Below are positions 4,029 through 61,900 of a stretch of DNA of 64,000 nucleotides, one piece after another (within the stretch, counting starts at the first letter, position 1; each line of letters opens with the position of its first letter). The DNA lies in contig QPGO01000001.1 in NCBI GenBank assembly GCA_008632985.1, forward strand, positions 528,404 through 592,403, written 5' to 3'. The translations under genes were made by a program, and so were the position numbers. The DNA is from Psammoneis japonica (taxonomy: Eukaryota). The notes beneath the pieces are model-generated. The model ran no database searches. It worked only from the letters and a program-made list of their open reading frames with translations, and was not told the DNA's origin.

Positions 4029-4079
4029 TCTCACGATTCACAGCCAAGATTCAACGGACGAACTTTTTTTCCTCCGCGC

Positions 4080-10705: not shown

Positions 10706-12603
10706 CTAATTGTTCGTCGATGTAAATACATACACGGATCCCATATTTTTGCCATGGACATCAGTCCAAGGCGCACCAACTGCAACAAGACTTCCGTCTG
10801 ACGACAAGGACACTGAATTTCCAAATCCGCAAAACTCAGTCTCGCCATTTAAAGGATCACCAAACTGATTCCATTTAGTCGTGTTGCTGTCGTATTGAAA
10901 GATTCGGACTTGGCACGCCTCGGCTATTCCATCAAGGCAATGATAACGACTTCCCACAGCCAAGGCATTTCCATTACTACTCAAAGACACTGACCAACCA
11001 AACCAATCATCGGGCTGTTCCGTCAAGAGAGTTTGGCCACGTTGATTCCATCTAGACGTCGAACGGTCATACAAAAAAACACGGACGCTATCGTTGCCTA
11101 GACCTAAAGGTGAACCTACGGCCATGGTCAAACCACTATCGTCAAGAGAAACAGAACATCCAAACCCACCACCTTCAACTTGGCCTTTGATTGGATCACC
11201 CAGCAGCTCCCATTTTGAAGAAGCAGAATTGTATTCATACACAGCCACCTTGCCAGTATCATTATTTCCACCCGAATACTCATGATACGCTCCAACGCCA
11301 ACTATGTAGCCCGAGCGGCTCAAAGAAACGGAAGCACCATATTTATCACCACCACTTTGACCAAAGAGTGTTTGTCCGAGTTGTTTCCAGGATGAACTGC
11401 CGTGGTGGTATCGAAACAATCGAATAGATCCACAATTTGCGCCATGTTCCGGTTCATCCCCAAAGTCTCCTACAGCAAGAATGTCTCCTGCATCCGAGAG
11501 CAACACGGAATCACCATATAGATCCAAATTGGTTTTTCCAGGAATATCGCTGCCGAGTTGGACCCAACTATTCAATGAAGAGTCGTATTCATACACCCGA
11601 ACTTGACCGACATACCGACCACCACTGTCAGTCCATGATGGAGCTCCAACGGCAAGAATTGTGCCGTCACCATTTAACGAAACAGACTCGCCGAAACCGT
11701 CATGGTCGGTTTGTCCAAATAATTTTTGGCCAATTTGTGCCCATTTTCGGGTGTCAGGATTGCATCGTTGCACAACAACACTGCCGGGATTTGAATTGTC
11801 GAAATACGTAACTGGCGCTCCAATGGCCATGACACTGCCATCATGAGACAATGACACCGAATTGCCAAAATTATCGCCTATCGCTTTGCCACGCAAAACT
11901 TGACCAACGGGATTCCAATCAGCAGGAATGACTGTAATCGAATCAGGTGCAATCGAATCGGTTTCACTGTTACGGCCGAACGGAATTCCAAGTGCAATTG
12001 CCACAATGATTACAAATTGTACAATTCCCATGCAAATCAAGCACACACAATAATGGCGCTTTTCCCTTGCACTTCCTAAAGCAGTCCCCGCCAAACCCTC
12101 AACCTCCCGTTCTTCCTGAGCAAGTTCAGCTTGAGCAAGCGGGACGGCCTTTCGAAGAAACACGTTTTCTTGCTCGAGTCTACATCTTCCAGAGCTTCTG
12201 TTGGTTCAGCCACAAGAGCTTCAACCAATAGCGTCCTTGCATCCCGGCCGGGTGGTGGTGGAGGCATGGGATCCGATTGTGCCGTTTCCAAATCAGATGC
12301 AATGGTGATGCAAGTGTCGCCGTCGCATGCTTGACCGCAACGGACCTCCCCTTGTTGGTTCACCGCAAAAGCACCGGCCGTTGCAGATAGAGGAGCAGCG
12401 ACTTCATCGACTTCTTCTACCTTTTCTTCTCCCTCATGCTTTTCATCTACGAGGATGCCGTTGGCAGAACCAAGAGCACACTTTGATGCTTGATCTTGTG
12501 CACTTTGTTCCAACAACCCTTCTTCTCCTTCTTCATGCCCGTCCTGACTTCTACCACCAAGACGTTTCTCTAATGCTTTCATGACCATGTTGCGACGATT
12601 CAC
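10706..12603 (-). pseudogene. Inverted, frameshifted paralog of the 4356-6278 FG-GAP membrane protein gene
   Basis: Colinear with paralog 1 (GAFAVNQQG, DPMPPPPPGRD, ...GSVYVFTSTNN). Frameshift at about 12183 (GAAGATGT|AGACTCGAG versus CGAATTGCC|AGACTCGAG). ATG-AAT-CGT has become GTG-AAT-CGT. The stalk is shorter. Confidence 0.75.
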
Positions 12604-12956
12604 AATGGCGATTGATTCAATCAACTTTGATGTTGCTTTCTGTTTTCTGTATAATAATGATGTGAGAACATGCGAAAGGAGAACTCGTTTCGTTTTCTCG
12701 CGACATCCCAGTCAAGTCATGTCTGATGATGTCTGCGTAGAATTTTAGCTGCGTGGTCTGTTGGTTTTTATTACACAGGCGTTTGCGAATCTGATTCCCG
12801 CGACATCACAAGTCATGCCATCATCGTTGTGTTGTCGAATGAAGGCGCGCGCAAATCTGCGACACAGTGATGGTTTGCATGGAGCGTTGCGTTCATGTGT
12901 CACGGATTTGGTGTCACGGATGCGTGGTCGTTTGCGATGTTGTCCACTGCAAGGTA

Positions 12957-15900
12957 CGTGTCTGACTGTTGGTGGATGGCAAGCGGATGCAAGTGATCAA
13001 AATGTCCTTTGACCAGTGGAGAGCGCAAATGAAGGACGACATTTGGGGTCATTTGTTCCGTGGCGCACTGCCCACTCAGCATCAAAGGGGCAGGAGCAAA
13101 AATGAAAACCATGTGATTTTTGGAGCAAAGTGTTTGGAGCAGAGCGGCTGCGGACTTTTTGTTTGTGGCGCTGCGACTGTTGCAGATTTGTGTTGCAACA
13201 TCTTGTTGGGCAAGTGGTGTCAGCGGCCGTTGTGCTGGAAATGGCGGCACTGGCATCGAGGCGTTCTTGGAGACGGTTGAGTTGATTGCAAAAAGGTGGA
13301 GATGAGCTGCAAGAGGGTTGTTGGTGTGGCCACACCAAGTTTTCAATTTTGGGGTGTGCATCCAAACACGACTGGCAAACAGTTTTTTCAGCGTGCCCAT
13401 TTCATCTGCAGCAGCTGCCAGCCCCACATTGCAGAGTGGAGTGTGACTTGCGTTTTGCTTTTGCTTTGCCATCTGCAGCTGCAGCTGCTTTTTGTCAATG
13501 TTTTGGAGGCAGGTTTGGCCAGGGCATTCTTTGTGACAGCTCGACTGGCCATGCACCAGCACCAGCTTGGGCTGCAGCTCTTGATCTGCTCAAGTGTTGA
13601 CCCCACAGGCGGGGTGTGCCAGAGCACCATCAGCAAGGGGGGGGGGGTGTGTTTTCTTGCACATCAAAAAGGAAAGATGCAAATTTGAGAAATGGCTGAA
13701 TGTGCTGCCAAAAAAGAGCAGAGGTTGGAGTCAAATAAAAAAATGAAGCCTGGCCACCCACCTGCTGAGCTTGAGATGGTGGTGAAGTGCAAGCCTCGTG
13801 AAGTCGACGTTGGAGCGCCAGGTGAAACACGCAACTTCTCAGCCAGGGGCAGCACAACAAAAAAAATGACAAGCCTTGGAGCAATGGGCACTCTTGTTGT
13901 CACACTCAGGATGCAAGGCATTGCCAAGCTCTTTGGCATGACCCTGGTTGTTGGGTCAACAAAGGGGCTGTGGCTGCCTTTCATCCAAGCAAGGTGCCAT
14001 TGCAGCCAGGACTTGTGTGGCCTTGGAGCACATTGTTGTGCCGCACACAAAATGAGAGTTGAACTGTCTTGGCTGGGTTTTGCAATTCTGCCTCAGTTTT
14101 GCAGCCACACCTTGTGTGTGTTTTTCTGTGCAAGCTCTTGTGCAGATGTCGCCTTTCTCTGATGGTGTGACGATGGTTCCTGCCTGCCCATTCAGACCAT
14201 TTGTTGTCAACATGCCCCCAGCATGCTGTGATCATTGGCAATCTCATGCAGTGGCGAAAATGATTGGCATCAAGCTCTCTTTTGGTTTGTTTGCTTGGCA
14301 CTCTTCTGTGGTGTCTTTCCTTCTCATGTGCAAAGCTTCCCCAAAATTTTCAGTGCAAACCCTGTGTGTTCTGCAAGTTGTTTCAGATTCTCCACGCCTC
14401 TCAAGTGGTGCCAACAACCCCCCTTCTCTACCTGTCATCAATTCAAGTTCCCCGCTTCACAAGGCAAACAATCTTCTGTTGTTGCTGCTCTCAAAAGCTT
14501 GAAATTGAGACCAACTCAGTGTGCACTGGCTTTTCTTTTGCATGCAAACAGTTGTGCTGCACAAGTTTCAGTGCTTTTCTGCATGTCTCAAATGTCATTT
14601 TGGACAACCTTCTGCCCATTGTCTGCTTGAGTTCTTTGCTCTGTGTGGTGAACAATTCTCCTTTGTTGTTGTGCTCCCACAAGACCAAATTTGAGACTGA
14701 CTCAGTTGGTGCTGGTCAATTGTGTGCTGCTCTTTGGCTTCTCATGTTGAATTTTTTCCAGACTGCTCATTTCACCTTGCCACCAGATCTGATCCCAAGA
14801 GAAATGTTGCCTGCAGCATTGAATGCTTTGCTTTTGAAATCTTGTTTTGCTGGCCCTGTTTTTGTTGCTGCCAGTCACTTCCGGTGGGCTCCACAGTCTT
14901 GTGACATCAATCTTCACACTTGCCATTGTGCACCCCTGCTGCATCACAGTTGCTGCTTGCTCTTGTTTTGCACTTTTTTCTCTGCATGGACAGCTGTGGT
15001 GTGATGCCATGTTGCTCTTTTTTAGATTTTCAAAAAGTGCAATGACAACATGAGTTGGCATTGTCCTGAGCAAGGAGCACTGTTTTGCTGTGCTCAATCA
15101 AAGCACCTCAAATTGGAAAAAGATGTGCCAAATGAGCACTTTTGCATTGGAAGCCACCATGGCTGAAAGTTCATGCAGAGCCAGCAGCTGACCCAGCAAA
15201 CCTCTTGGAAATGTCAATCCCACAAGGAAGCTGAAAATTCAAACACAAAGCAAAAAGGAGCTTGCTTGCAGCAGCCCAAAACTTGCTCAGGCCCAGCCAG
15301 CAGCACATTTTTAAATCCTCCATGAAACAGAAGCCAAACAAGATGAGTGGCCACCCACCCAGAGCCTGGCCCAGACAACATTTTCTGGACAGTCCAAGAA
15401 CTCTCAACCTTTCCTTTGCTTCTTTTGACATTGTCATCATCATCTCCTTTGTGATGTTGCCATTTTGCCAGTCTTGGCCATCATGACAATGTCCACATCG
15501 AGGCTGGCACTGCCGCATCCAGGAGGGCACACATTGTGATGCCCACCAAAGTGCACCCCATCTGATTTTGGCTGGAGAGCAATGACTCCCTGTCTGTCAT
15601 TGAGCTGCCATCCATGGAAAGAACAAAAACAACAGCAAGGTTTGCACAAGGCTGCCAACCAGCTGCAGAACACTGCCCAGACTCTTGGGGATTTTTTTTT
15701 CAAAGAGGAGCGCAGTTCTTAACCAACACAAGATTGTGGAACTTCTCTTTTGCAACTGCCAAAACATCTGTGGTTGCACCCAAATCATGTTGCTTGCAAA
15801 AGAAAAGGTGCAGCTGTCACTGCAGTGTCTCTTTTCTCTTTTGATCTTTGCTCGCACACACTGTGCATCTTGCACGGGGTGCTCAAAGACAGCCCCGTTG

Positions 15901-18900
15901 CAGCCACACACAGTGGTGCCAGCCATGGACACCAAGCCCAGCCCACCAGGAACCAGATGAAAACTGTGCTGCCATGAGTGACAGCTCAGCAAAAAGCCCC
16001 GCACCTTGTGGACAAGGCACCAGGGTGCTGCACCACACACACCACACAAACCAAAACAGAGGCAAGAGGAGCTCCGTGTGCCCCTGAGCAGGGTTGCAGC
16101 TCCCTGCTTCAATCTCCCAGTCACATCAATGTGCTCAACAATGGAGGGTGCCACAGCCAAGTGCAATGGCAGCAAAAAATGATGCCCAACACACCGAGGG
16201 AAGTCATGACACACTGCAACCTCCCCACAGCCACCTGTGCACCAGCAGTGGTGCCTGTGTGGCCCACAATGATGGCACAAAAGAGCAAAAAAAAAAAAGA
16301 TGATGAGCGAGGTCAAAGCAGTGACAAGCAACAAAGCTGCTTTATGTCAGTGGCTTTTGTGGACAAATTGGCATTTGCTGTGCCCAACGCCTGGGCCCTC
16401 CCGCCGCATCGCCTGTCGCCGCACGCAGATGACGCAGACAGACGTGCCAGATTTGGATTGCTCTTTTGTCACATCACGTTTTTTTTTATGCAATAAATTG
16501 AACGATGAGATGTGTCTGCTTTCACATTTATGCTTGTGCCGCGATGAGATGCGGGTGTCATGACCCCAAATGCCTTCAGCCGTGTCAAGGATGGACTCAT
16601 CGGTGGAGAGAGGTTGTGACGCATCGAGTTTGCCAGTTTGCAGCACATGTCATGCATTTGTGTAGCTGTTGCGGTTTTTGCCAAGCACCAGAGGCATGTC
16701 ATCAAGAGCCAATGGGAATTTCACCACTTTTCGACGTCAGCTATACACGCCCTCAGCTTCTACATGGGTTTCTACGCACCTTCTCGCACTGATGTCGCCC
16801 TTCTCAGACGGTGTTGATTTGGCTCCAACAAGCCCATTCTGCCCACGTTTACCAATGGTACATCCTTGTTGCAGCATGATGAGCAAAGTTCATCAGTGGA
16901 AAACGACGAGTGTCCCGGCCTTTTGGTTCGTAAGCTGGTTGTTATTTCTCGTAATTTTCTGTTGTCTCAGAAAATTTTCTACACAGGTTCTGGCACAAAT
17001 TCTACGCGGATCTGCAGATGCTGCTGACGATCTACATGTCACTTCCCCGGCCTACTTTTATCCTTGCGAATCGGTTCTCAACGCCACTTCTTTTCCTTGC
17101 CATGCAATCAAGTCCTTCACTCTTTATGGTGCAAGTGCTGCTTCTGTTGCGGCCCTTTTCAGCAAGAATGTTGGTCATCCTTCGGAGTCATTTGATTGTC
17201 GTCGATTTGCTGCTCCCATCGGTCTTTCTGCACAAGATCTGGCATTGTTTCTACGTGCCACCTCTGACTGTCTACATGTCACTTCTCCGGACTGCTTTTG
17301 TCCTTGCCAATCGGTCTTCAACCTCTCTGCTTTTCTCTGCCGTGCAATCAAGTGCTTCGCTCTTTGTGGTGAATGTGCTGCTTCTTTTGCGGCCCTTTTC
17401 AGCAAGAACACAAGTTGTCCTGTGGTGTCATTTGATGGTCTTCAGTTTGCTGCTCTCAGCAGCTTTTCTGTGCAAGACTCAGCATTGTTTCAACGTGTCA
17501 AGAATGTTTTCTCCGATGACCTGCTCGTCTCACCTTCAAGGCTGCCTTTGTGGACCATTTTAAAAACCTGTCTGAGTGCAGTTGTCCGTTGCAGTTGTGG
17601 TGTGCCTTCTGTGGCTGTCATCAACAAGCATGCAATGAATCCCTCATGTGAATCATTCCTTTTAAGTTGTCTTGGCGGGGTGTCATCTTCTGGTGACACC
17701 CACTCCAGCTGATCCCATGCCAGCTCCTGCCGCACTTGGCTGTGTGCTGGGAGTGTGGGTCAGCCGGCACCGGCCTGGCTGACAAAGGAGTGACAGCACT
17801 TAAAAAATGGATCTGTTTTTTTTTTTAATGGGAATTTCACCACTGCACATGCAGCAATGCAGAATGCCGCAATGCCAAGTGTTTTTGCAGTGTTGAAGGA
17901 ATGACTCACTCCCGCGGAGCACACTTTTCAGTCTGGCCAGCAAATTTTTCTATGCGATTTCTACGTCCCACGCAGAGTTCTACCGGCAGGTTGCCTTGGC
18001 ATTTGCAAAAAGCACCCTCCGCCCCATGATGGTGTCACGCCCTGCTCACGCTCACCATGGCACCGGCTGCACTGTCGTTTGTTGTGCTGAGCAGGACTTG
18101 GTCAGCTTCCATGCAACATGGGTTCATCTCTTTCGAGAGGAAAGTCAATTGACAGGCGTCATGAAGAAGGCCTCTTTTCATCTTTCTGGGGCACTGTTGC
18201 CTCACTCAAGACAACTGTCAAGTGCACAGACACTTTGGAAAAATGGCATGTCATGCAAAGACACAATGAATCGTTGATGACCGGGGTTTGTGTGAAAGTG
18301 ACAGATCACAGGAGCAAAATGTAACCACCAAGGGAGAGAATCTTTAAGCGTCAAAGCCAAGCTGACTTTGCAGAAGCAGCGGCCATCAAATCAGCTGTGC
18401 GCAGATCCCCACCTTTCCTGACAGGCTGCTGCTCGGAGTGGGTGTGTTTCACCATCCTTGTTGAAACAACAAGATTCTGTGATCATGTGATCATCCCAAG
18501 GCTCTGAGAGAATTGTTTTCAAATGGCTGGGAATCCAAAATGAAGTGGACAAGACAAACAGGCAGCAATTGAGAATTCTTGAAGAACCAACAAGAATGGA
18601 TCGCCCAAGTGCCAATCAGATGCTTCTTGGCATTGCCCCAAAAGGCACTTGCTGAAAGCAGACACAATTGGAAATGAAATTTCTCACAAAAATGCCCTCA
18701 TCTGTCAACAACCAGCTCCACACCGAAAAGGAAGAAAGGCCATCATGTGCTGTCTTTAAAAAGAAGAACTCAGTGCGGAGCCACCCTGCAGGGAACCATT
18801 CAGTTAGTCTGGAATCCCTTGGAATGGGTGCGCACACTGTCAAACCTTCAAAAGGAGTGAGGCAAAGAATGTGAAGGGGGGTGCCTCATCCATGAATCTA

Positions 18901-19260
18901 GAATGAGCCCAAGTCTCAGAGCACTCGCGTTGGCGAGCATCATTCCCAGGCCTTCCATGCACAGAGAGGCAACAAAGAGAAGCCTTGTGTCAACTTGAAA
19001 GGCTTCAATTTTGTTTCTCTGTCAAGCGTTGTTGACAAATCGAAAGACAAGAAAAACAAGGGGCAAGCACAGATTGTTGCAGACACTGATCTACCGTGTC
19101 TTTGGTCGATGAAACCAAAAAAATGCGCAAGAAGTGTGCAACGATTTTGAGGCCGTTGCGATCGACAGAGCACCCAAGTTCACATTGACAACGCTCAAGG
19201 GCGGTGTCGAAATGCTGGTGCAAAAGAGGTTTGGTTGTGTGGGGAGGTTTCAGAGGCACC
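12957..19260. repeat. Highly degenerate TpA-depleted repeat/transposon remnants (unclassified)
   Basis: Near-absence of TA. Related motif GATGTCGCCYTTCTCWGAYGGTGT at about 14146 and 16791. No recognisable intact domain. Confidence 0.55.
17032..17500 (+). repeat. Tandem duplication, 240-bp period
   Basis: CTACATGTCACTTC at 17032 and 17272. Shared TTGCGGCCCTTTTCAGCAAGAA. The second unit carries TA->TG changes (CTTTATGG->CTTTGTGG). Confidence 0.8.
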
Positions 19261-19267
19261 ACACAAT

Positions 19268-19663
19268 GACGGGTTCCAATCCCAGGTGGGACTCCGTGTG
19301 ACATTGGGCCCGTAGACTTCTACGTGCGAGCTCTGTGTTAAAATTATGAATTAATAAAAACACAAATGATCGCCAACAGAAAAAGAGGCAATTTTACGAA
19401 CGTATCTCCTCCTTCACACTTACAGTACATGAACAATAGTTTGCATGGGTATATTCTACAGACATTAAAGAATATACCCAGCGTTTTTTCATTGTCATAA
19501 ATGTTGAAAATAGAAAGCCTTTGGCTTCGCAAAATAGGAAGTATGAAACAATTTCGTAGAATATCACACGTAGCCATCTACGTGCGCGACATACGGCGCG
19601 ATCCAAAAACTATTGATGTCACAGTTCAGCACTACGAGGTCCCACCTAGAGCTGGAACACGTC
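19268..19663 (+). mobile_element. MITE, GAC-TIR family, copy A (young, TA-rich)
   Basis: Imperfect TIRs GACGGGTTCCAATCCCAGGTGGGAC / GTCCCACCTAGAGCTGGAACACGTC; 4-bp TSD CAAT. Confidence 0.9.
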
Positions 19664-20760
19664 CAATGGCAGAGGTCAACACAGGCTCACAACCTGTTAG
19701 AGACTCCAATGTGTCGCGCGGCTGTCACCGCTTTTCTTGTTTGTCCTCGGCAGAGTGATTCAAGCCAGGAGACAAGACACAACAGGACCAAATCTAACAG
19801 GCAGGAGTGGAGATGGCTTTGCTGGCACTGCAGGAAGCCCTGCTCCCAAACCCAAGCTGGACGGCAGGCCAGAGGGTGGGAGAGGCAGGGGCGATTGACT
19901 GTCTGGAGCCCGGCTTGCTGTTGTTGGGAGAAGAGTCATTCTGACTCCCGTGCAATGTGCAGCACTTTCAACGGGAAGGAATTGGGAATCCCTCTTTGCA
20001 GATCTCACGAGGACAGCGGCTGTCACTGTTTTTCTCGTTTGTCCTCAGCAGAGTGATTCAAGCTGGGAGACAAGACACAATGGGACCAAATCCAACAGGC
20101 AGGAGTGGAGATGGCTTCACCAGCACTGCAGGAAGCCCTGCTCCCAAACCCAAGCTGGACAGCAGGCCACCAGCACCACCCACAACAGCGCGGCAATGCA
20201 GTGGAGGACCTGTGACTTGGGCGGGAGGGTGGGCTGCATCTGGTGCCGGGGTGGTGACCAGTGGCCGCTGACGCAAGGATCCAATGGAGAACAGCGATCG
20301 GGATGGGTTTTACCTGGTCTGGCGGAGGATCCTCTTTCTTGCAGTGACGGATTTGTCAGGTGAGATTAAAATCCATTTGGCCTTGGGGTGTTTTGTGTGG
20401 GTCTGGGGCCCCCATTGCAGAAAACATTTGGCCAACCGACCGCGCGGCATCTTCAGCGGTGCGTGCTCGGACGGGATGGCCACATGGGGTGATTTGGCCA
20501 GTTCTGCATCGGTGCATGAAGCCACAAGCGCCAAGATTTGTTCTGGGGACAAACAGTGTTAAAATGTTGCAAAGAGGCAGCAGTGGTCAGTGATTGAAGG
20601 CGGGAGGCATCGTCAGCAGCGGTGTTCAACGGCCCCGGCAGATGATCGTGCAACGTTGGTGATGGGTGGCATGGCATGGGAGCTTGGCTCGGGGCTTGGC
20701 AGTGGTGGAAGAGCCCTTGTGTTGCCAGTGCATTGTGCCTGAACTGTCAGTGTGCTGCAG

Positions 20761-21229
20761 GATGGGTTCCAGTCCTGGGTGGGACTCCGTGTGACATTGG
20801 GCCCGCAGAATTCTACGTGCAAGCTCCGCAGCAAATTTGCACTGAAATGAAAACATGTGTGATTGCCAACAGAAAAAGAGGCAATTTTACGAACGCATCT
20901 CCTCCTTCATGCTTGGAGCACATCATTGACAGTTTGCCCGGGTGTGTTCTTCAGACATTGAAGAACATGCCCAGCGCATTTTTGTTCTTGCAAATGTTGA
21001 AAATGGCCCGGGTGTGTGTTCTTCAGACATTAAAGAACACACCCAGCACATTTTCATTCTCATGAATGTTGAAAATAGAAAGCCTTTGGCTTTGCAAAAC
21101 AGGGAGCATGAAACAATTTTGTAGAATGTCACACGTAGAAATGTGCGTGCGCGACATGCGACGCGATCCAAAAAACCATTGATGTCACAGTTCAGCAGTG
21201 CGAGGTCCCACCTAGAGCTGGAACGCGTT
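20761..21229 (+). mobile_element. MITE, GAC-TIR family, copy B (inserted in the Ngaro element; internal duplication)
   Basis: Homologous to copy A; TSD GCAG; multiple TA->TG/CA changes relative to A. Confidence 0.9.
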
Positions 21230-23377
21230 GCAGGTTGGTGCATTCCCATGGATCAAAACAATCAGTGGTGGCATGGGTGTGGAGCATGCCACCCACTAAT
21301 TCAAGGTCAGTGTTGGCAATGGAGCCATTGGGGTTGTCGAAGGTTGCCAAATCCATGGTGACATCACGGGGAAAGGACATGTGCCATGCCACAGGGCCTG
21401 AATCCTGCTGGTGCCGGGGCCGACCTTGGGGTGAATGCTTCACCCGGGCCACCCGGGGGACAGCAGTGGGAGTCAGGAGGAGGACACCACCAGCACTGTG
21501 GCCAGCGGCGTCGTGACAGCCGTTCACGGTGAAGTCCAAAGGCGCAAGCTCTTGGATGCGCACAGGACAATCTTTGATGGTTGTGGTGAGATCGCAAAAT
21601 TCATCCAAGACACTGTGCACGGTGGGAGTCAAGCAGACATGGGAGTTGGGCAGGGTGTGATGGAGAGCATCTTGCAGCTCAGAGAAAAGGCCTTGGGAGC
21701 CAGGAGTGGCAAGCAAGAGTGAACGGAGTTCTCCAAGCAACTTGTGGCAGTTGGTGGCGGCAGCACATTGATGGGTTCAGGGGAAGTCCTGGGTGAGAGT
21801 GTCGCACAGTCAACCTGAACGTCGGGTGGTGAGACGCAGTGTCACAGCTTTGGTGTCGATGAGCCATCCGAGGACCTCTTTTTGTGTGGACCAGGAGGCG
21901 TCACCTTTGCAAAGCTTCTTGACAGAGATCGGTTTGGTGTGGCGAGGTGAGTCGTCTGGGGCCAAGGGACAAAAAATGTCGTCAATTGCAGCCATCAGAG
22001 TGTGACGCACATTCAAACAGGCAGCGCGTGAGCCCTGTGCGGCCCCAATGTAATCATCAACATGTGTCTCCACATGAGCAAGGTGATGGCGGTGTCGATG
22101 TCCAAGGTGTGGGTCAGGGACGTTGGGAATTGGGACGGTGATGGTGTCGGGCAGCGGCGGCGGTGTTGGCCGCAACGGCAGGCAGCGACTCATGGCAGCA
22201 TGCTCCAAACAATGAGGTGGTGCCTGGCAGTTGCAAAGGAGGAGTTGGTTGGTGATGTCAGCACCAGTTTTGGTGGTGGTGCTAAAGGCAGGTGGCAAAC
22301 TCTTCCATCCCATTGGCAACTTGGCAGGGATGGCGACAAGTGGTGGCTCGCCTGGCAGACTGGGGAAGGCAATGGCCAGGACCTGTGCATGGTCCAGTGC
22401 CAACGTCATGCAGTGGAATCCGTCGGACATGTCAAAGGCTCTCGGTCCTGAGTCCCCGAGCTGGGACCATTGCCAATGACCCATTTGGTCGTCCAATGCT
22501 CCGTGGCCCAAGTGAAGAGTGCATCTTGCTCTGCTTGACTGTGGCCTCCACGATTGGCGCGGGTGTTGCAATTGGAGTTGCGCTGTCCCTTTAGATGGAA
22601 AGGGAGGCACCACGGATTCCCACTGGCATCCATCGGCAGGGCAATGTTGGCCGCAGCACACCTGTCCTTGACTGCATGGGAGCGGACCCCCGGCCTGGCG
22701 CGAATCTCATCGAATCGCGTGTCGCAGCGCTCATTGCAAATCAACGTGTTGGCACCTGGGCTTGCCACTCTTGGGGGAGTGGTAGGTTGCTGTGGTGCAG
22801 CAGGCGGTTGGGGTGCTGCCAGTCAAGCTTGGTGCGGCAAGACGGCCGCAGGCAAGTCGCACCTCCAATGCATGGCACCTTTGGCAGCCAGGCAAACAGC
22901 GGGTTGTCCTTCAAAGGGCAGGGGTTGGTCAGTGCGTGCCTGGTCAGTGAACCACTGCCCGATCTCTGTCTGGGCCCAACGTTGGAGGTCTGCCGGCAAA
23001 GTGGGGTAGCGCACCATTTGTCGGGCCATCTCGTTGGCACACAAACATCCATCGCACAGCATTGTTGTCCCAGCCAAGTCATGACCACATGCTGGGTTCC
23101 TAAACTGGTGGCGAGGATGACCTGGTGACGCTGCAGCAGGAGTGTTGGGCTCCCTGCATTGTGGTGGCGACCCTGGCTTCATCGGGTGCCTCCAGGATCT
23201 GAGTGTCCGCTGCACTGGGTGCGTTGTCTCCACCATGGATTTGATGGCAGAGTGCGTTGCGGTGCACAATTTGCTCTTCTTGCTTGGGCGTCGTGAGACC
23301 AAAGATGAAGGGATTGATCCCTTGGGCAAGGTCGTCTTGATTGTGTCCAGCAAAATTCTTTTGGAGCAACTTGGACA

Positions 23378-23766
23378 GACGCGTTCCAGGTCCAGGTGGG
23401 ACCTTGCACTGCTCAACTGTGACATCGATGGTTTTTTGAATAGCGTCGTATGTTGCGCACGTACATTTCTACGTGATTTTGGCGAAATTTTGCATCATTT
23501 TATGGCACAATTGTCAGGCGATCCATTCAACAACTTTTGACATTTTTTTCTTCTACGCCATTCTCGAGTGTCTTAAGAATGGTGCAGGGCAGGCATGTTG
23601 TCCAAAACTTCAAGTACGAACAGAGATGTGTGTGCTACAAACTTGGCTGTTTGTTTCATGCTGAAGACAAATGTGTCCATCAACCAGAGTACGAACTGCA
23701 GAGCTCGCACGTAGAATTCTGCGGGGCAAATGTCACAAAAAGTCCCACCCAGGACTGGAACCCGTC
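23378..23766 (-). mobile_element. MITE, GAC-TIR family, copy C (inserted in Ngaro gag)
   Basis: TIRs GACGCGTTCCAGGTCCAGGTGGGAC / GTCCCACCCAGGACTGGAACCCGTC; TSD GACA; same subfamily as copy D. Confidence 0.9.
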
Positions 23767-24922
23767 GACACCAAATTTGCTGACACGGGCACATTGAAGT
23801 GCACCTCAAGGGCCTCACGTTGTTCGTTGACGTTGCCTTGGACAGAGGCCACCCATCCGGGCTTGAGCGCAGATGCCAAGTCGGCCCACATCTGCGGCAA
23901 TTGGGTCTCTTGGCAGATCTGACACAGGCGCATGATGATGAGCGTGGCTTGCACACCAAAAGCCTCCCGCGGGGTCTTGCCGCGTGCGCCAGCTTGTGAG
24001 CGTGCCTGCGCATCCAACCTCTGCTGACGTTGCTCTGCGTGAGATTGTCAATGGCAGCAATCACAGGCTGAAAATGCTGCAATGTTTGCCCTTGTTGCCC
24101 CACACGGTTGGGCAAATCCCGATTGACCTTCCTCTCAAAGTGCTGAGTGAGGGATTTGTTCAGTGGCTGGGGCAGAGTGGGCCAGTCCCTGATCACAGCC
24201 GAGGCTGCATGATCCTGCTGGGCAGCTGCACATGCCACCTTAAGGAAATCTAACAAGGGGCGGCACTCGTTGACTTGATTTGCCGCAGTCGCCGCACCAT
24301 GGATTCGTGCGAAGGCCGGTTTGGGCGTCAGTGCAGTCAAGAGTGGAAGATCAACATGACTGAAAGGCACGAACATGCAATTGCGTGTCCGCACCTCTGC
24401 TGCATTGGCAGTCTGATTGGCAACATGGGGGTGAAACCCCTCTGGGTCTGCCGTGATGGCGGCCAAAATCGCGGCATCATCCAACATGTGTGCACCATGG
24501 GGTGCAAGATTCATCATCTCCACCGGGAACTTGGTGCTGGTTGATGCTGGTTGACCGCCAAATCACCTGCAATGCCGCAGTTGCACCCATCCCAGGGTTG
24601 GGCTTGTCCCACCACCGTTGTGGGGTGTGCAGACAGCCTGTGCAAGATCTGGACACGTCCGGGCTTGTTGGCTTGGCCTGGTGAACGACAGTGCATGGCA
24701 ATCATTGGCATGTCGTGCTCTGATGCGGCAGCAATCCTGGCGCACAAAGCTTGAGGATTGAACCTTGACGGTCCATTGATGCCAGCTGCAAAGTCCATCA
24801 TGGCTTCTTGGTGCTGCTGTCCCTGGTGCGGGTCACAGTTGGCTGCTCCACAGCAGTCGGCGTGCATCAGCATTGCCCACGGTTGCGGCGGCACTGGCGC
24901 CACATTGGGTCCCTGTGCAGCC

Positions 24923-25120
24923 GGTGCCTGACCAGGAGCTTGAGGTGGTGCCAGTTGCTGTTGCCCAACGGGTGGTTGCTGCACCGGTTGATTCATGGGG
25001 GGTTGCTGTCCTTGCAGCGGTGGTGCCTGACCAGGAGCTTGAGGTGGTGCCAGTTGCTGTTGCCCAACGGGTGGTTGCTGCACTGGTTGATTCATGGGGG
25101 GTTGCTGTCCTTGCAGTGGT
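24923..25120 (-). repeat. 99-bp in-frame tandem duplication in the gag-like Q/P-rich region
   Basis: PPLQGQQPPMNQPVQQPPVGQQQLAPPQAPGQA occurs twice. Confidence 0.85.
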
Positions 25121-25539
25121 GGTGGCTGTGGCTGCTGCAGCCCTGGAGCAGGCTGCCATGGCTGTTGGCCCACCGGTGGTGCCGGATGTGCGGGTGCGGT
25201 GGTGGTGCGCTCTGCTGAGCATTTGCATTTCCCAGGTCCGGTGGAGTGCCAGGATTCAACATGATGTTTTGAATTGGTTGCACTCCTGCTTGCATGAAGA
25301 AAGGATGAGGAAAAGTCAACAACAGCGGCGGAGGTCTCCTGCATCGAACTCAACAGCGATTGGCTGTCTAGAGCCCGGCTTGCTGTTGTTGTTCTCGAAA
25401 GAAGGAAAAACAAACGAAAGCTGGAGAAGAGTCATTCTGACTCCCGTGCAACGTACGGCACTTTCAAAGGGAAGGAATTGGGAACCCCTCTTTGCGGATC
25501 TCACGAGGACAGGGAGTGACCTCTTCCACTGACACAGAT

Positions 25540-25799
25540 GGCCTGTTCCAGCTCCAGGTGATCCATGCGGGTTCGATTCCCATCATTTGACAATTTGTGC
25601 ATTTGGCGCATTGAACTTTTTCAAAATCCGTTTTTTGCCAAATCAAAGGGCAAGTGCACACTTTGCATGCATTTTTGGGTGTGCAATTGCCTTTCGATTT
25701 TCGAAAGAATCAAAATTGAAGGAGTTTGATGCGCTGAACTGTGCAGAAAATTGGCCTCTCGTGTGATGAAAAGCGGATCACCTGGAGCTGGAACATGCC
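25540..25799. mobile_element. 260-bp MITE related to the GAC-TIR family
   Basis: TIR GGC(C/A)TGTTCCAGCTCCAGGTGATCC at both ends; 4-bp TSD AGAT. Confidence 0.85.
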
Positions 25800-26529
25800 A
25801 GATGTCACAAGATCGAAAGAAGTCAAAGGAACGACCAGTCAAAAAACAAAGGATGAGCATGCCATTGGACAATGTGACGACCACAAATGCGCATTGCGAG
25901 GTTGACAATTCACCCCACACTCTGTCACACATTGCCCGCGCTCATGTCACAACAAGAAAATGCTGCACATTGGAGCACAGACCAAAAAAGAAGGTGAAAC
26001 AAAAGAAACACAGTTGGAGGACAACAACAAAAATGAACCATTGCACCACTTCAGTCGATGAAACATTTTGTGACATGTGCGGCACTCGTCAAAACCTCCC
26101 CAATGTGTGCACATGATGTGGGCAAATGAGATGAATCTTGTGCACAACTTGCCCCATGGAAAGACGCGACCATGACGGTGCAAACGACGAAAAAAGGGGT
26201 CTGTAAGTCGTTCTCCATTTTTGATTTTTGTGCAACTGGCCAGATTTAGCTCAGCACTGAAAAATGTAACGATCCGTGTGATGATGGAGGTCTTTCTCTT
26301 CCTCTTCTTCCCGCACCAATTACAGACCTCCCAAGCTGGGAGTGGATGGGCGGGCCGGGAGCGATAATGACTGTTTTCTGGCTTTTTGAATCAGTGATCT
26401 GATGGAAGGACAGGCCGAGTGCGACCATTGTATTTTTATTTTTTCCCTCGCGGTCCGCCATGGTGGTGTCATAGCTTTTTCCGTTGCCGCTGTCACCGTC
26501 GTCCCTGAACAACAAAACGGTATCATACC

Positions 26530-27682
26530 ATGGCAGAGTGCTACTCAATCGAAAAGGCCGCTGATGGATCTGCAGGTCAAAAGAGGTACAGGAAAAGCAC
26601 CACATTGACCTTTCAGAACGCCTGCAGCATCAGAAAGCTGCTCTTGCAGAGGCTGAACGGCGTGTAGAAAAGCTGCGTCATGACATTATCAAGACAGAGG
26701 CAGAGCTGAGAAAAGCAACATTACTCTCCCCTTCAGAAGCGCCAGTACAGGACGTGTTGGGGAGTCCGGATATCGTGGTGAATGAGATCTTTGCGTTTCT
26801 CTCCATACCTGACCTCGGGCGTTCTGCCGCTGTCTGTCGCGAGTGGACAAGTTATGCTCGTAAGGAACATCTCTGGCGAACTCATGCAATGAAAAAGTGG
26901 CCGCATACTCCGTCCTCTGCCATATCCAACTTTTACTGCTATTGCCGAAGTCAGATTACTCAAAAAAAACTTTCGAAGGGGAGCTCATTTATCCACATTA
27001 CAACAAGCAGGTGAATAGCAAGTATGCCGACGACGAGTACTACATTCTCTATGAGCTACCGCGTATTATGGAAGATACCGAGGATGGACAACAGAGACCT
27101 GTATCTCGATGTGTAAAGTTGGACGAGTCTCTTGAAATCCTTGAACAGAATCATTATGAGGAGTCGATCTGTAACTGCCGCAATCGTTGAGCACACAAGT
27201 CGGCTTTTTTACGTCTGCCGCTTGAATTGATTTGCAGCTCCTTTCCAGTACGTGAACTTCTCCAGAGATTCAGGGAACTCAAGATATCCATTCTTCGGAG
27301 ATCAGACAGCAAAATGGCGCTGATAATGGACCCTGGCAGCCAACGATATTGCAACGGATGGGATTGATGACTGGCATCCTGAAGATGTCATCACTCAGGA
27401 CACTACCAGTACCTGAGAGATATACCAAACTTTTTAGACACGAGACACAAAACATCTATTGGAGACAGGTTGCCACTTGGATTACGAGCCAAAGCTGTTT
27501 TGCAGTTTCCCTCTGACCGCGAATTCGTGGGAGGACGTCCCGTCGCCGAGCTTGGAGTTGATACGACGTATACTTGGCCTCATCGAGATGATCTCTTACA
27601 GGTGCGCTTCGAGTCACTGATTCTTGGTTTTGATCTGCATGATCAATCCAGGGAGGAGAGTTATTTTATGAGACACACATGA
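26530..27682 (+). pseudogene. F-box protein pseudogene (several frameshifts)
   Basis: Coiled coil then VLGSPDIVVNEIFAFLSIPDLGRSAAVCREW...LWR (F-box). Frame breaks at about 26605, 26965 (poly-A) and further downstream. End approximate. Confidence 0.7.
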
Positions 27683-28169
27683 CTCCAGCCTATGATAAGG
27701 CGTGTCTAAATCAATTCCTCGAAATGGCTGGTGTTGAATGGCATTGATGGGTTTTTTTAATTCAAACTTCATCTTGATGCAGTTATTGAACCTAAGCCCG
27801 GCAGTGATGAAGACACTTGATTTCCGCAATTCTCTGCATAACACTAGTAGGTTGAAACCAAGTCCAATATATGCCTTTACATGAGTGCGTTTTAGCAAAG
27901 CTACCTACAGTACAATGATTTCCATTTCGATTCCCTGCTAGTCGTGCATTGGTAGAGCTTTTCCGTCGCCATAACACAATTTTAGTAGAACTTGTGCCAG
28001 CCCAAAGGAAAATCTAAGTATAACATTTGTCAGATAAACGTTGATGTCATTCGTGTCAAATTCCAAGACAGACCACAAGAAACAATTCATCAAAATTCAA
28101 GCGTGAAGGGGAGTGGAAGAGTCGTCCTCGCAACACTGCCCAAAGCTGATCTTGTGGCCAGCTTGCAAA

Positions 28170-37662: not shown

Positions 37663-38057
37663 GACGGGTTCCAGTGCCAGGTGGGACTTTTTGTGACATT
37701 TGCCCCGCAGAATTCTGCGTGCGAGCTCTGCAGTTCATGCTCTGGCCAATGGACACATTTGTCTTTGACACAAAACAAACAGCCAAGTTTGCAGTGCACA
37801 CATCTCTGTTCGTACTCAAAGTTTTGGACAACGCGCCTGCCCTGCACCATTCTTAAGACACTCGAGAATGGCGCAGAAGAAAAAAACATCAAAAGTTGTT
37901 GAATGGATCGCCTGACAATTGCACTGTAAAATGATGCAAAATTTCACCAAAATCACGTAGAAATGTGCGTGCGCGACATGCGATGCGATTCAAAAAACTG
38001 TCGATGTCACAGTTCAGCACCGGCAGCACGAGGTCCCACCTGGACCTGGAACGCGTC
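37663..38057 (+). mobile_element. MITE, GAC-TIR family, copy D
   Basis: TIRs as in copy C; TSD TGCT. Confidence 0.9.
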
Positions 38058-56775: not shown

Positions 56776-58913
56776 GACGTGTTCCAGTCCCAGGTGACGC
56801 ACAAAACGACAATCGATTTTGAGTGTAATTTATGCATCCTTTAGTGTATGAAGCATTTTCACACAAAATACTTAGACAGATTGACTTTTTTTAGGCTTGT
56901 AGAGCATGAAAATTTAAATAATTTTTTGAGGGGTATTCAAGTCCTCATGGGATATGTATCATAAACTTCCTCAGTAGACTCAATTCTGATTGTACGTCAG
57001 TAGATTTATACTTAGATTTCTTTGTAGGTAAAAAACCTACCAAATGGCATCGTAGAAAGACACATTTAGGTAACATCCAAATAACGGCCATTTTTTTGCC
57101 GAATATCATCCGTTGTGTCACGAATCTTTTAACGGGGACCCCCCGTAAGTCTGTACATCGCCCGTGGCTGCTTCAGCTCCGCGATAGCTCCGTGAAATTT
57201 TTTTATCACAAAAACAGCAAACCAACCACGAAGATCACCGAGGCCGTAAGGCTTCTTATGACCGCTTTTCCAGCTAGGTTGCCATGCATGTGGATGGACA
57301 GTGACCTCATGCTGAAGGCACTGCAACGTGGTGTCTTTCCATGACCACATAAAGATGACATCTCATCTGCTCTCCGAGGTGCCTCAAATTCACTTGCCCT
57401 CCGAGTAGACGACTGCGGAGGCAAGCGCTGCCATGCTGTTGCTCTGGCGGGTGAAGAACTCCAGCGCAATTGCTGTGAAGCACAGGAGTTTGAAGGGTGT
57501 CATCTTCAAAGAATTGGGAGCAAACATTTCCTGAGCAGCGCGAGGGAAAAGGACGGCACGGCAGCAGTGGAGGCCACTCAAATGTTGCAAGAAGCAGGCC
57601 ACTCACAAAAGGAGAATAACGGTGATGCTGCTCCCCAAGCTTGTGGCAATTCGGAAATGCAGCAAAGTGATTCAGAATCCAAGACTGTTGGTGATTGTGG
57701 ACGCAAAGAACCGGGTGAGAAATTGGTCGACATTGATTGGTCCATTGATTTTTTGCAAATGAGCTGCAGCAGCATGCCGTTGCATGACGATTGAGAGTGG
57801 TTTCTCTGTTTGGAGCCACTTGAGTGTGGCAACAACCATTGTCACATGATTCTAAGACACCAACGCAATGCTTTGCAGAGCATTGCCATTCGTCAACGAT
57901 CGGAATCAAGGCATCTGCGAAAACGCAACACGACTGGCGTGTTTGGTGTTTTTCTCTGTGCGGGAGTTGCTCGAGCACTGCAGCAGCCACTGTTGTGGTG
58001 TAAGACACCAATGCAATGCTTTGTAGAGTGTTTCCATCAGGCGCAACCCACTGTAGAATCGAGAGTTGCAGCATCAAAACCTGGAATTTAGAGCTGCACA
58101 TGCTGGCAAAAACAGCAGCGCGTCCAGTTGCAGTTTTCCCATTTCTGTCCATGTTTGTAACCTTCTGCTGTCAATCCTTTTGACCAAACCTCATCAACAG
58201 GATCAGAACAAATGATCCGTGGGAAAGCATTGACAGCCGGACAGTTGCAACGACCAAACAAACGTTTGTAAGATGCCAGACATTGGCGCAACACGAGAAA
58301 GAACATCAACATTTTGCGACTTGCTCCTCGTGCTGAAATCCTGGTCATCTTCCACACTAGAACCATGCATCATGTGCCGGCATTGCATGCTTCTTTTCGT
58401 CGGAGATTTCTTCCATTTGGGTGGGCTTGGAGGCGTTTGGGGTGTCGCTGCTGATTGGCAACGGCGACATTGATTTGCAATTGTTGTTGTCACAAAACAC
58501 TTTCTGCTGGTGATGCTTTTCGCCAAATGTCCCCAACAGGAGTAGAACAAACGATTTGTTGAAAACGATCGCCAGCAGGACAGCTGCAACAACGTTGGCA
58601 TGCAACAGACTCAAAGGGAAGTTGTCGCGTTGATTGACACGAGAAGGGTTGCGTTCCACTCAGAAAAGTGGCTCAATCGGATGGACGTACAGACTTACGG
58701 GGGGTCCCCGTCAACGCAATGAAAAACACAGATGGCACAACAACAATGACATTGCAACACTCACACGAGTCTTGTCAGTGTTGCAAGACATTTGTGTTTG
58801 TGTGAATCTACACTTTTGGTGGTGAAAGTTTGAACGTAAGTTAGGGACCGCGCAAAAATCGCGCAAATGTCGTTTTTGTGCACGATTTGGTTCACGTGCG
58901 GCTGGAACACGTC
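56776..58913 (+). mobile_element. GAC-TIR-family non-autonomous element (about 556 bp net) carrying a nested TTAA element
   Basis: TIR GACGTGTTCCAGTCCCAGGTGA / TCACGTGCGGCTGGAACACGTC; 4-bp TSD AATC. Confidence 0.85.
57133..58710 (+). mobile_element. Non-autonomous TTAA-type (piggyBac-like) element, 1578 bp
   Basis: 24-bp perfect TIR CGGGGACCCCCCGTAAGTCTGTAC; flanks TTAA (left) and TCAA (right); no recognisable ORF. Confidence 0.88.
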
Positions 58914-58917
58914 AATC

Positions 58918-61900
58918 CAATGTGAAAATGAAAGTGATCTTTTGTGAGCGTTTTGAAATCATGATCAACTGAGTCTCTTTGAAATGTCCAGAGATTCTGC
59001 AAAATGTCTCGTTGCAGATTCTGTGCTGGTCTTTGCATGTGGGTTCGACGCTCTTGCTCTGTCTTCTAAGAAATGCACACATGTTGGGTCACGCAGATTT
59101 GACATGACTGATGTGTGCATTTTGTCACACTCCCTTCAGCAGTGTTGGGCGGAACGGTGATGTGTCCAACAATCTGCCAGCAGAGAAGGAACTTTTTGTG
59201 TCTGAGAAAGTCATGCTGCAGCAGAGGCTTTGTGAACATGTCTCCAACTTGATGTGATGCATCAACAGGACAGATCAAAACAACTCCCTTGTGAACATGG
59301 TCCTTGAAATGATGAAGCATGTTGTTGAAATGTTTGGTGTCTGTGGTTGCATCTTGGGCAGACGTGCCATCTCAAGAGCACTGGAATTGTCCTCAAATGC
59401 CTTGCAATGGACCTTGGGTGTGTCTGAGATGAGCGGGAGTGACCGTTTTCCTTGAGCTCATTCAGAATGTTCACAATTGGAATGGCGCTCCGAAGACTTT
59501 CTGAAAGTGCAATAAATTCTGCTTCAGCTGCACTTGGTGCCACTTGAGTTTGCAATTTGGATGACCATGCAATCGGACATCCTGCAAATGCAATGACGCA
59601 CAGCAACCTGTCCTTGACTTGGCAGTGCTTGTGTCACAGGTTGCAGTTGGCTTGCTCCAATTGCCTGCAAAGTTGGCATTCGCGCAAACTTCCAATGACT
59701 TGTCCTTGGGATGGATCTACATGCTGCGGTCTGTTTTTTGGGAGCTTGCAATTTTATAAAAACAACCTGGATTCTTTTGCTGAATGCACGCACTCACTAA
59801 AAACAAAATTTCGGTGACAGGTCGAACTTTGTCCGTTTCAAAGACACCACAAAATGCACAAACAATGGTTGTGAGCATGCGCAACTTTTACCTTGTCAAC
59901 AGCAGACATGTCCACAGCCAGTCAAATGCCACTCATTGGATTTTCCCAAAAAGTCGCAGCCAATCTGCCATGAGAAGCCCGATTTCAGTGATGGTTGGCG
60001 GTTTTTTCAACCTGGCAACAGGGCATGGGCCGACAAGTGGCATTTGAAGCTTTGAATTTGCAGCTCTCATGCCAGTGCAACAGCCCTGAGAAGGGCTTGA
60101 CGAATGCACAAGTGCTTGGGGGGTGTTCGAGGCAGGTCAAAATGACACAATGAAGTGTGGGAAATGCGAGCCATTTTAAATTAGACCGCAGCACGTAGAT
60201 CCATCCTCAATTGAATCAAGCATGATTCCTTCTTGGGCAGCATTGTGAAGGCACTTGCAAAGCCACGGTGCAGCTTTGCTGTGCGCTCACTTTGGGTCTT
60301 CGGAAAATCAGGTGATTTGATGTGCCACACAAGCAATGTCGGGTCGAGTTCACTTCTCGAGGAAGTTGAGTTTGCCGACCACAGCTCGGCAGTGGAAGCT
60401 CCCTTCAAATGATGAGTCATTCTTGTTTTGATGTGGCATCTTGGAGGAAGGAGCTGGAGTGGATTTGCTGGCTGCTCTTTTCAGCAAGTTTGCCATTTGC
60501 AGCATCTGTTGGATGAGGTGCGGTTGCACATGCTTCACACGACCATCAGGAAGCATCTCGACATTGATGCCGAGGTGGTCTTTGATGCTCCCTTGATCAT
60601 CAATGTCAACGTTTTTGTTCTTGACATCCAGAATTGCTTTGCAGATTGCATCTTTGTCAGGAGAAGCAAAAACACCGTCATCAACACAGTGCACAAACAG
60701 CACGTTGCTTCGGCAGCACAGGCATCTGTCAACATTGGATTGTTTGAATCCAATTCTGAGCAATCCCTCTTTGAGATGTTCTCCCCAAACTCGTCCTGCT
60801 TGCTTTTGTCCATGCAGATTCTTCAACAGTTGCAAAACACAATGAGTCTTGCCATCACCACATTTTGTCTCAATTCCTTTGGGCAATTCCACACACATGT
60901 TGCACTCAATGTTGGCATGTGGATGGGCAAGGATGAAGTCAACTTGGCGTGTGTGCCATCTGTTGAGGATGGATGGGATGAGGATCAATCATGTGGTGCA
61001 CCAGTTTATGACTGGGGTGCATGTGTCAAAACAGTTGACTGCACATTCCTGTTTTCCATGGCGCACATTCAATCTTGCTTTCCACTTGTGTGCTTTCTGA
61101 GTTTTGATGTCTTGCTTGTGTTTCATGGACCATGCTGAAGGCAAGACCTTGACTCCCTCTGGAACTTGATCTCTGGGAATCAATCTCCAGTGTTTGTGCT
61201 TGATGTGGTCATTGACCTCTTTGACTGCTGCCTTTGTAAATTCATCTTGGTCAGGTTCATGCATGGCTTCATCAAAGTGCATGATGTCTTGGTCGGATGG
61301 AGTCACAAATGATGGGGGTTGGCCCATGTCATCTTGGAGACAACAATCTTCCTTGTGCATTGTTTGGCACTCACACTTGGCTGCCCCATGTTTGCTTGTG
61401 TGGGGGCATTGTTGCCAGCGAGTTCTTGTTTGGTGCCTGTGAGCACTTCATCAGGTGAGCCAAATTCTGTGTCCTTGATTTGTTGTGGAATCACAGGTTC
61501 CAGATCAACTCTTGGTGCTTGAGCTGCTGTGGGCTCCCTTGACTCTTCTGATTGCCAAAACATGTTGAATCGACTTGGCCCAGCTTGTTTCTTGAAGCCT
61601 GCTGCAGTCTGCCATTGGGAAAATGTTGGAGGATTTCCAGCAGATGGTCTGACAGTTTCAAAAAAGTCATTGCATTGCAAATGGAATTGTGGTGACATCA
61701 GGCCTGTTTCCAAATTCAAGACTGGTGATGTCAAACTGGCATGTCTTGGTGATGGACTAAGATTGATTCCAAGTCTTGCTCTTTGGCTCCACTTTGGCAT
61801 GCGTCCTCCACCTTGCAATCTGTTGTTCAGAGCACAGACTGGGCATCCGAATTTGTGGTGAGCTTTGACGGAAGCAAACCTTTTGATCAGTGAGGAACCA

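Follow-up and report, generated by a model that had tools for sequence, protein, structure and literature searches.

The 64,000-nucleotide stretch of DNA analyzed here (the window) carries two neighbouring copies, A and B, of a miniature inverted-repeat transposable element (MITE), and at many positions where copy A reads the dinucleotide TA, copy B reads CA or TG. The question raised by this locus is in which direction these sites have changed, and by what process. Taken together, the evidence presented below indicates that the contrast probably reflects a transition process specific for TpA, which acted in the lineage of B and hardly in that of A, and that the TA dinucleotides of A are ancestral-like.

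The MITE family and its copies A and B

Four copies of the family were located by BLAST and repeat finding within the window (TSD, target-site duplication; o/e, ratio of observed to expected dinucleotide counts):

19268..19663, + strand: MITE copy A, barely edited; TSD CAAT at 19264-19267 and 19664-19667
20761..21229, + strand: MITE copy B, edited; TSD GCAG at 20757-20760 and 21230-21233
20936..21076, + strand: internal duplication of ~70 bp in B; unit B1 at ~20936-21004, unit B2 at ~21006-21076
23378..23766, - strand: MITE copy C, of another subfamily than A and B; TA o/e 0.37; TSD TGTC in element orientation (GACA at 23374-23377 and 23767-23770)
37663..38057, + strand: MITE copy D, 88% identical to its sister C; TA o/e 0.15; TSD TGCT (37659-37662 and 38058-38061)

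The copies measured 389-469 bp, and all four were flanked by perfect 4-bp TSDs (CAAT, GCAG, TGTC and TGCT) and bounded by imperfect terminal inverted repeats (5' GACGGGTTCCAG..GGTGGGAC vs. the reverse complement of the 3' ..GTCCCACC..CTGGAACGCGTC). The ends of A and B coincided exactly with those given in the preliminary description of the locus. No transposase was found in the window, and an open reading frame (ORF) that overlaps B (20646-21062) had no Pfam match.

Contigs of run X1 that matched positions 19200-21300 at a likeness of at least 80% amounted to 4372 pieces, while runs X2 and X3 contained one matched contig piece each. Summed depth in run X1, which does not equal copy number, reached ~2x10^5 at the MITE termini vs. 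10^2-10^3 between the copies. Family variants were taken from the best-supported 41 of 261 variant rows of run X1, with position 19313 lying outside those rows. Two run X1 contigs joined 20755 to 21229, skipping 473 bases, and represent an empty site for B, either in an allele or in a paralogue. Other contigs of this run aligned to B without its internal duplication (joints skipping 74-77 bases), which may thus be private to B. A and B are insertions of one mobile, high-copy, ~400-bp non-autonomous DNA transposon (MITE) family.

Run X1 contained 72% of the sampled words of the window. At 19886-19890 and 20719-20730 all matched run X1 contigs differed from the window, including 19886-19887, where the window reads CA and 3/3 contigs read TG; these contigs could derive from another haplotype, from a different strain or from a paralogue. 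A tandem duplicate was also observed between A and B (19718-19871 and 20016-20169, 91% identical), in which 13 of 14 differences were transitions at pyrimidine-purine (YR) dinucleotides, including four CA/TG double differences.

The global alignment of A and B (395 aligned columns) contained 65 differences, 46 of them transitions, and YR cells accounted for 41 of these 46 (sum from the dinucleotide matrix). TA in A was opposite CA in B at 10 sites and opposite TG at another 10, while TA in B was opposite CA or TG in A at none (two-sided binomial p ~2e-6 for the 20:0 split). Seven TA were common to both copies, the seven TA of B being a strict subset of those of A. Moreover, six double differences of CA vs. 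TG were found, CG was opposite CA or TG at nine sites, and identity over the two halves was 79-88%. In copy A all four YR dinucleotides were close to expectation (TA 0.88, 29 observed vs. 32.9 expected; CG 1.15, 20 vs. 17.4; CA 1.13; TG 1.04), and its CpG ratio was the highest among the four copies. Copy B contained 7 TA vs. 33.3 expected (0.21) and 19 CG vs. 25.4. The 400-bp flanks of A were purged of TA (2 observed vs. 26.2 expected and 2 vs. 20.5), and those of B contained 2 vs. 18.8 and 1 vs. 17.9.

Copy A is a barely edited copy within purged flanks, and not the literal ancestor of B. The preliminary description had presented the two as a direct before/after pair and A as TA-rich. The ten A-to-B changes that it quoted were all found in the sequence, as was the change in the internal duplicate (B1, TTGAAGAACATGCC; B2, TTAAAGAACACACC), and the pair holds as a least-edited and an edited relative; A and B are, however, cousins rather than ancestor and descendant, and A, which has far more TA than B, is TA-normal (0.88) rather than rich in absolute terms.

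Direction of the change

Since tyrosine (Tyr) is encoded only by TAY codons, transposon proteins provide an outgroup that is independent of the tree of copies. Two retrotransposon remnants from the purged part of the window (delimited in the next section) were used:

60353..60988, - strand: copia-type reverse-transcriptase remnant (RVT_2); 0 Tyr in 212 residues
52126..53070, + strand: gypsy-type integrase remnant (Integrase_H2C2); 0 Tyr in 315 residues

Columns with Tyr in at least 50% of homologues were taken as conserved. In the reverse transcriptase (120 homologues) all seven such columns read His-CAY (3) or Cys-TGY (4), with the same result (7/7) in a first pass with 118 homologues, and in the integrase, for which the 87 of 150 homologues covering at least 60% of the remnant were used, all four read His (2) or Cys (2). 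Pooled, 11/11 conserved Tyr columns had changed to His (CAY) or Cys (TGY), which indicates that the direction in purged DNA was from TA to CA or TG, both outcomes being about equally frequent. Other conserved residues were mostly retained (sums of 56/77 columns in the reverse transcriptase, e.g. G 11/13, P 5/6 and K 7/9, and 45/66 in the integrase). Conserved Arg was in places replaced by Gln, Trp or Cys, and CpG decay therefore runs in parallel. Both remnants are degenerate in other ways too, with frameshifts and stops.

Among the database homologues, P0131, P0132, P0301 and P0315 showed a Tyr to His/Cys purge in 6/7, 5/7, 4/4 and 4/4 columns, respectively, with different choices between His and Cys; similarly edited elements are thus present in other records. 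A metagenome scan with the partly Tyr-purged copia homologue P0230 recovered 45 loci with TA o/e of 0.37-0.97, none purged like the window, and a metagenome scan for the 5' inverted-repeat pattern gave 0 matches.

The internal duplication of B, with A as outgroup, points in the same direction. Its two units diverged almost only at YR dinucleotides. TA was kept in A and B2 and replaced by TG in B1 at two sites, while at two further sites A reads TA and B1/B2 read TG/CA or CA/TG; altogether, at least six TA were lost from the units after duplication, and a TA gain was found at no site. Since B1 and B2 lost TA after duplicating, some of the editing took place late in the lineage of B itself.

In the four-copy alignment, TA was common to both subfamilies at columns 78, 409 and 422, and both CA and TG occurred among the copies at columns 40, 175, 179 and 442. 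Copy A is not pristine and has lost some TA, because at column 175 it has CA (and B has TG) where C and D retain TA, and at column 40 its 5' inverted repeat reads CA and its 3' inverted repeat TA. Plain four-copy parsimony was discarded as a polarity test, several sites being ambiguous or favouring CA. The preliminary description had based its direction on parsimony at a single site, the last that it quoted (column 442), where the states are as it described (A TA, B CA, C CA, D TG); that site is not decisive alone, since a CG ancestor would likewise yield CA and TG. The direction itself, from TA to CA or TG, is supported mostly by evidence from beyond the pair: the 11/11 Tyr columns, the B1/B2 comparison, the lack of any TA excess in the window and the CpG content of A, the highest among the copies.

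Compartments, replicate pairs and flanking context

Dinucleotide composition over the whole window (o/e: TA 0.25, CA 1.59, TG 1.55, CG 0.59) was bimodal, with borders that were sharp at the 500-bp scale. The following regions and elements were distinguished:

1-12900, 26501-28000, 30001-37500: gene blocks, spared; pooled 21,900 bp; o/e TA 0.50, CG 0.92, CA 1.27, TG 1.23
13001-26000, 28001-30000, 37501-64000: TpA/CpG-purged, transposon-rich DNA; pooled 40,104 bp; o/e TA 0.09, CG 0.42, CA 1.79, TG 1.72
56913..57126, + strand: TA-normal stretch (o/e 0.88), which forms a second before/after pair with its TA-free paralogue (0.00) at 41629-41843
56776-58913: element of 2,138 bp, whose 12-nt termini are those of the MITE; perfect 4-bp TSD (AATC)

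Copies A, B and C lie within the purged block 13001..26000. Purged DNA contained MITEs, remnants of copia and gypsy elements, and tandem repeats in a degenerate state. When 50 of its ORFs were scanned against Pfam, six had a match at E<=0.01, four of them to retrotransposon domains (Integrase_H2C2, RVT_2 twice and Pol_BBD) and the other two to Senescence_reg and, weakly, DUF7138. TAA and TAG together occurred 3.8 times per 1000 trinucleotides in purged blocks vs. 14.6 in gene blocks, while TGA occurred 23.5 vs. 19.1 times. In four genes, TA o/e was 0.52 at the junction of codon positions 3-1, 0.46 at 1-2 and 0.45 at 2-3. Since the value at the 3-1 junction was no lower than at the other two, the genes were spared by the process itself, rather than having their TA preserved through selection on the encoded amino acids.

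The differences between A and B were replicated in two other pairs. In the comparison of C and D, C had TA where D had CA or TG at 6 sites, the reverse was found at 0 sites, and 11 CA/TG doubles were observed; 35 of the 40 substitutions were YR transitions, with 2 other transitions and 3 transversions. A control pair of gene-type paralogues showed 65 YR transitions among 287 substitutions. In the pair 56913-57126/41629-41843, TA was opposite 8 CA and 8 TG, with no reversed site. TA sites changed in one direction were thus 20 for A/B, 6 for C/D and 16 for this third pair, none being reversed in any of them. Over 29 repeat alignments, 170 double differences of CA vs. TG were counted.

The 220 TA that remain in purged DNA were unevenly distributed among contexts (TTAA 47, ATAT 0, ATAC/GTAT 4). 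The TA retained in B lay in contexts that also survive in purged DNA across the window: of the kept sites, 6 belonged to slow and 1 to fast context classes, vs. 5 and 15, respectively, of the lost sites (Fisher p=0.0087). The kept/lost test pooled over the three pairs gave p=0.05. GTAG/CTAC changed to GCAG/CTGC with a bias of 17:1. A general rule by which the +1 base would determine the edited strand was rejected, as only this class was clearly biased and the other context classes were balanced. The purged DNA has undergone a regional, TpA-specific and strand-symmetric transition process with flanking-base preferences, alongside CpG decay.

In the 2,138-bp element, TA is at a normal level over the first ~500 bp (56826-57275 contains 36 TA) and scarce in the remainder, a pattern that corresponds either to tract-wise editing or to a mosaic element; its 287-aa ORF had no Pfam match.

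The genes of the gene blocks included HOOK, two FG-GAP genes, TPR/Sel1 (an ORF of 1,261 aa), ATP-synt_C, F-box and RusA, the last on an ORF at 3190-3852 (- strand) with a Holliday-junction resolvase domain (E 2e-11) in a eukaryotic gene block. The best matches of the HOOK ORF reached ~53% identity, and among the 120 homologues listed, those with organism names were all from diatoms (Seminavis, Nitzschia, Synedra, Epithemia, Cylindrotheca and a Bacillariaceae metagenome-assembled genome), for which reason the host is referred to as diatom-like. A large inverted duplication (4355-6623 and 9475-12607) carries two FG-GAP/Kelch-like genes, which are 71-79% identical and differ by an ordinary substitution spectrum. 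Long Tyr-free ORFs that overlap one another were numerous on either strand of the purged blocks; these ORFs are not genes. The purged blocks also contained a degenerate tandem array with a period of ~33 nt at 44900-46700 (GGTGGGAGCCTGT...CACTGG-like units), in which TA o/e was 0-0.17 and CA+TG reached 2.2. Scans of the window for Rfam families and tRNAs gave no matches.

Explanations and known systems

In the reading favoured here, TpA would have been converted to TpG or CpA, by A to G changes on either strand, in the lineage of B and hardly in that of A. Together with CpG decay, this process would have nearly emptied the transposon-rich compartments of TA and CG, sparing the gene blocks. Copy A would be a TA-normal islet, which most likely arrived late from a source that had not been edited; otherwise it would have escaped an episodic, tract-wise process. 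The footprint suggests that an enzyme modifies the DNA itself, the likeliest candidate being a DNA adenine deaminase directed to chromatin that is silenced or repeated; deamination of adenine to hypoxanthine, read as G, would be the simplest chemistry, and a thymine-modifying route would leave an identical footprint. The co-located CpG loss suggests targeting by silent chromatin or by repeats, and a role in genome defence may be proposed.

Several observations weigh against this reading. Column 70 reads TA/CA/CA/CA in A/B/C/D, so that plain four-copy parsimony favours CA there, and it is tied at columns 409 and 422. Where B, C and D all have CCCGCAGA and A has CCCGTAGA, a parallel change to a single product is expected because of the 17:1 bias of GTAG/CTAC, and plain parsimony therefore misleads at that site; only this bias, however, is clear enough to make parallel changes converge. 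In run X1, at five TA sites of A (19352, 19356, 19422, 19437 and 19498) a single alternative, CA or TG, made up 80-94% of family depth, and the TA of A at these sites could be private. Such one-sided majorities count against the reading because independent, symmetric decay would give a mixture; they are more readily explained by inheritance from edited sources, or by convergence driven by context, than by decay that is free and independent. At the CCAT site of B, the family states are T (86%) and G (74%). The Fisher test on contexts cannot separate a copy A that never lost TA from one that lost and then regained it. Finally, the idea that A is simply young is weakened because the 2,138-bp element is half TA-normal and editing tracts can thus end within an element; the state of A may reflect escape rather than youth.

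The first alternative accepts the direction of change and holds that B was copied from an edited source, most of its CA/TG states being inherited, and that A came from an unedited lineage, for instance from a source in a spared gene block. This is a plausible account, which we nevertheless regard as on balance doubtful. The one-sided family majorities at the five sites agree with it, as do the TA o/e of B, which is above that of its flanks, and the empty-site contigs, which suggest that B is perhaps a fairly recent insertion. It has to contend with the internal duplication, perhaps private to B, whose units diverged almost only at YR dinucleotides and lost TA after they were formed. Part of the state of B may come from an already edited source copy, in addition to the late editing.

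A second alternative dispenses with dedicated machinery: TpA and CpG would both be hypermutable, through spontaneous chemistry or base modification, wherever chromatin is silent, methylated or poorly repaired, and copies would differ only by exposure time. The co-occurrence of TpA and CpG loss in the same compartments and the gradient in TA o/e (A 0.88, C 0.37, B 0.21, D 0.15, flanks ~0.1) are consistent with it. To our knowledge, no spontaneous lesion gives A to G changes only after T. The extreme specificity of the changes (35 YR vs. 2 other transitions between C and D), the sharpness of the borders and the skewed contexts of the surviving TA (TTAA 47/220, ATAT 0) also argue against it, and we consider it rather unlikely. 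In the rhizarian alga Bigelowiella natans, a comparable process was active in only some of the lines (Mettrop et al., bioRxiv 10.64898/2026.01.13.699255), which likewise counts against this alternative.

According to a third alternative, the family was TA-poor and copy A alone gained its TA by C to T hypermutation at CpA/TpG, as in repeat-induced point mutation (RIP). Column 70, the family majorities of CA or TG at the five sites and private G to A and C to T changes of A (e.g. CCAAT vs. CCAGT) could be read in this way. The highest TA o/e of any 400-bp stretch in the window was 0.885, however, and such a gain in A is unsupported because no stretch shows TA excess. CA and TG are not depleted in A (1.13 and 1.04), its CpG ratio (1.15) exceeds those of B, C and D, and all 11 Tyr columns changed in the opposite direction. 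Moreover, double hits in A would be needed where the other copies have both CA and TG, and TA is common to A and B2 where B1 has TG. A gain of TA in A is thus highly improbable.

It is equally hard to credit a read-out artefact, in which the polymerase would misread TpA that carries a modified T or A in silent chromatin, the assembly then showing CA or TG for what is modified TA. The mismatch between the window and run X1 at 19886-19887 and the incomplete representation of window words in that run could hint at such an artefact. Separate contigs, however, carry fixed and differing states for each copy, GTAG changed to GCAG at 17:1 rather than at the 1:1 of a strand-blind pick, and the retrotransposon remnants are degenerate in ways other than TA loss. 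We know of no natural modification of T or A that is read as C or G at near 100%. Selection against TA in non-genic DNA, for instance to avoid a TA-cutting nuclease or TA-targeting transposons, is scarcely credible even though TA is under-represented in most genomes, given that hundreds of sites changed in dead transposon remnants with almost no background substitution and that the pattern tracks element borders (copy A) and not function.

Among known systems, RIP of ascomycete fungi resembles the process in the window in being confined to transitions, dinucleotide-specific and restricted to repeats, with sharp borders, inactivation of transposons and a two-compartment genome. Unlike the case described here, RIP turns CpA/TpG into TpA and leaves repeats TA- and AT-rich. 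RIP was rejected as a classification, as the gain of TA that defines it was not found: the repeats have TA o/e of 0.09 and CA/TG of ~1.75, TA o/e nowhere exceeds 0.885, and polarity is opposite. CpG decay by deamination of 5-methylcytosine occupies the same compartments (CG o/e 0.42) and produces the same CA vs. TG doubles between copies, but TA loss requires T to C or A to G, the opposite base change. The footprints of ADAR and APOBEC share the character of a deaminase-type hypermutation directed against mobile or viral nucleic acids. ADAR, a metazoan enzyme, prefers a 5' U before the edited A and acts on double-stranded RNA. In the window, by contrast, DNA transposons and intergenic DNA are affected, hence the change would have been made on DNA.

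The known process closest to that in the window is the de novo TpA to TpG/CpA hypermutation of integrated nucleocytoplasmic large DNA virus (NCLDV) and virophage DNA in mutation-accumulation lines of B. natans (Mettrop et al., bioRxiv 10.64898/2026.01.13.699255). Of the 231 mutations recorded there in two regions of integrated viral DNA, 230 were A to G or T to C, all of those reportedly on TpA; only some of the lines were affected, and adenine deaminase chemistry was proposed (bioRxiv 10.64898/2026.01.13.699255). Judged by its footprint, the process in the window shares with that of B. natans its dinucleotide specificity, polarity and regional targeting. Both consist of A to G or T to C changes at TpA only, giving TpG or CpA, and both are regional, aimed at foreign or mobile DNA, and leave clusters poor in TpA and rich in CpA and TpG. 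TpA-depleted coding sequences of B. natans were enriched for reverse transcriptase and DDE transposase domains (bioRxiv 10.64898/2026.01.13.699255). The two cases differ in that de novo mutations were recorded in a rhizarian, while here a long-term footprint is seen in a diatom-like stramenopile; in degree, Rho_TpA being 0.45 in an NCLDV region of B. natans vs. a TA o/e of 0.09 over 40 kb in the window; and in target, since here MITEs, long terminal repeat (LTR) retrotransposon remnants and all inter-gene DNA are affected, with strong CpG loss. A term search of the preprint returned no mention of diatoms or stramenopiles (bioRxiv 10.64898/2026.01.13.699255), and no report of TpA-targeted hypermutation in either was found in the literature searched.

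A more far-reaching proposal, which we put forward tentatively and with less than even confidence, is that diatom-like stramenopiles possess a dedicated defence inverse to RIP, guided by chromatin or repeats, in which adenine deamination (or thymine modification) at TpA would erase the TpA of transposons to near saturation, along with every Tyr codon and most TAA/TAG stops. It would have a common origin with the rhizarian process, as an ancient immunity of the SAR group (stramenopiles, alveolates and Rhizaria), and copy A would have been caught before its first round of editing.

For annotation, long false ORFs are to be expected from gene finders in purged DNA as a result of the loss of TAA and TAG, divergence-based ages of transposons would be inflated, and homology searches with transposon proteins would lose sensitivity, given the change of every Tyr to His or Cys. 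In addition, the natural before/after pairs (A/B, C/D and 56913-57126/41629-41843) reveal polarity, the 1:1 strand outcome and flanking preferences without experiment. The case also gives good reason to look for the responsible enzyme in an alga that can be cultured. In the literature searched, TpA-targeted hypermutation is known from one 2026 preprint, in one rhizarian alga and on integrated viruses; the window shows the long-term outcome, nearly complete, of a process of the same kind in a distant lineage. As judged from composition and copy comparisons, the present case appears to be of the same kind as that recently described hypermutation, in a more extreme form and on ordinary transposons.

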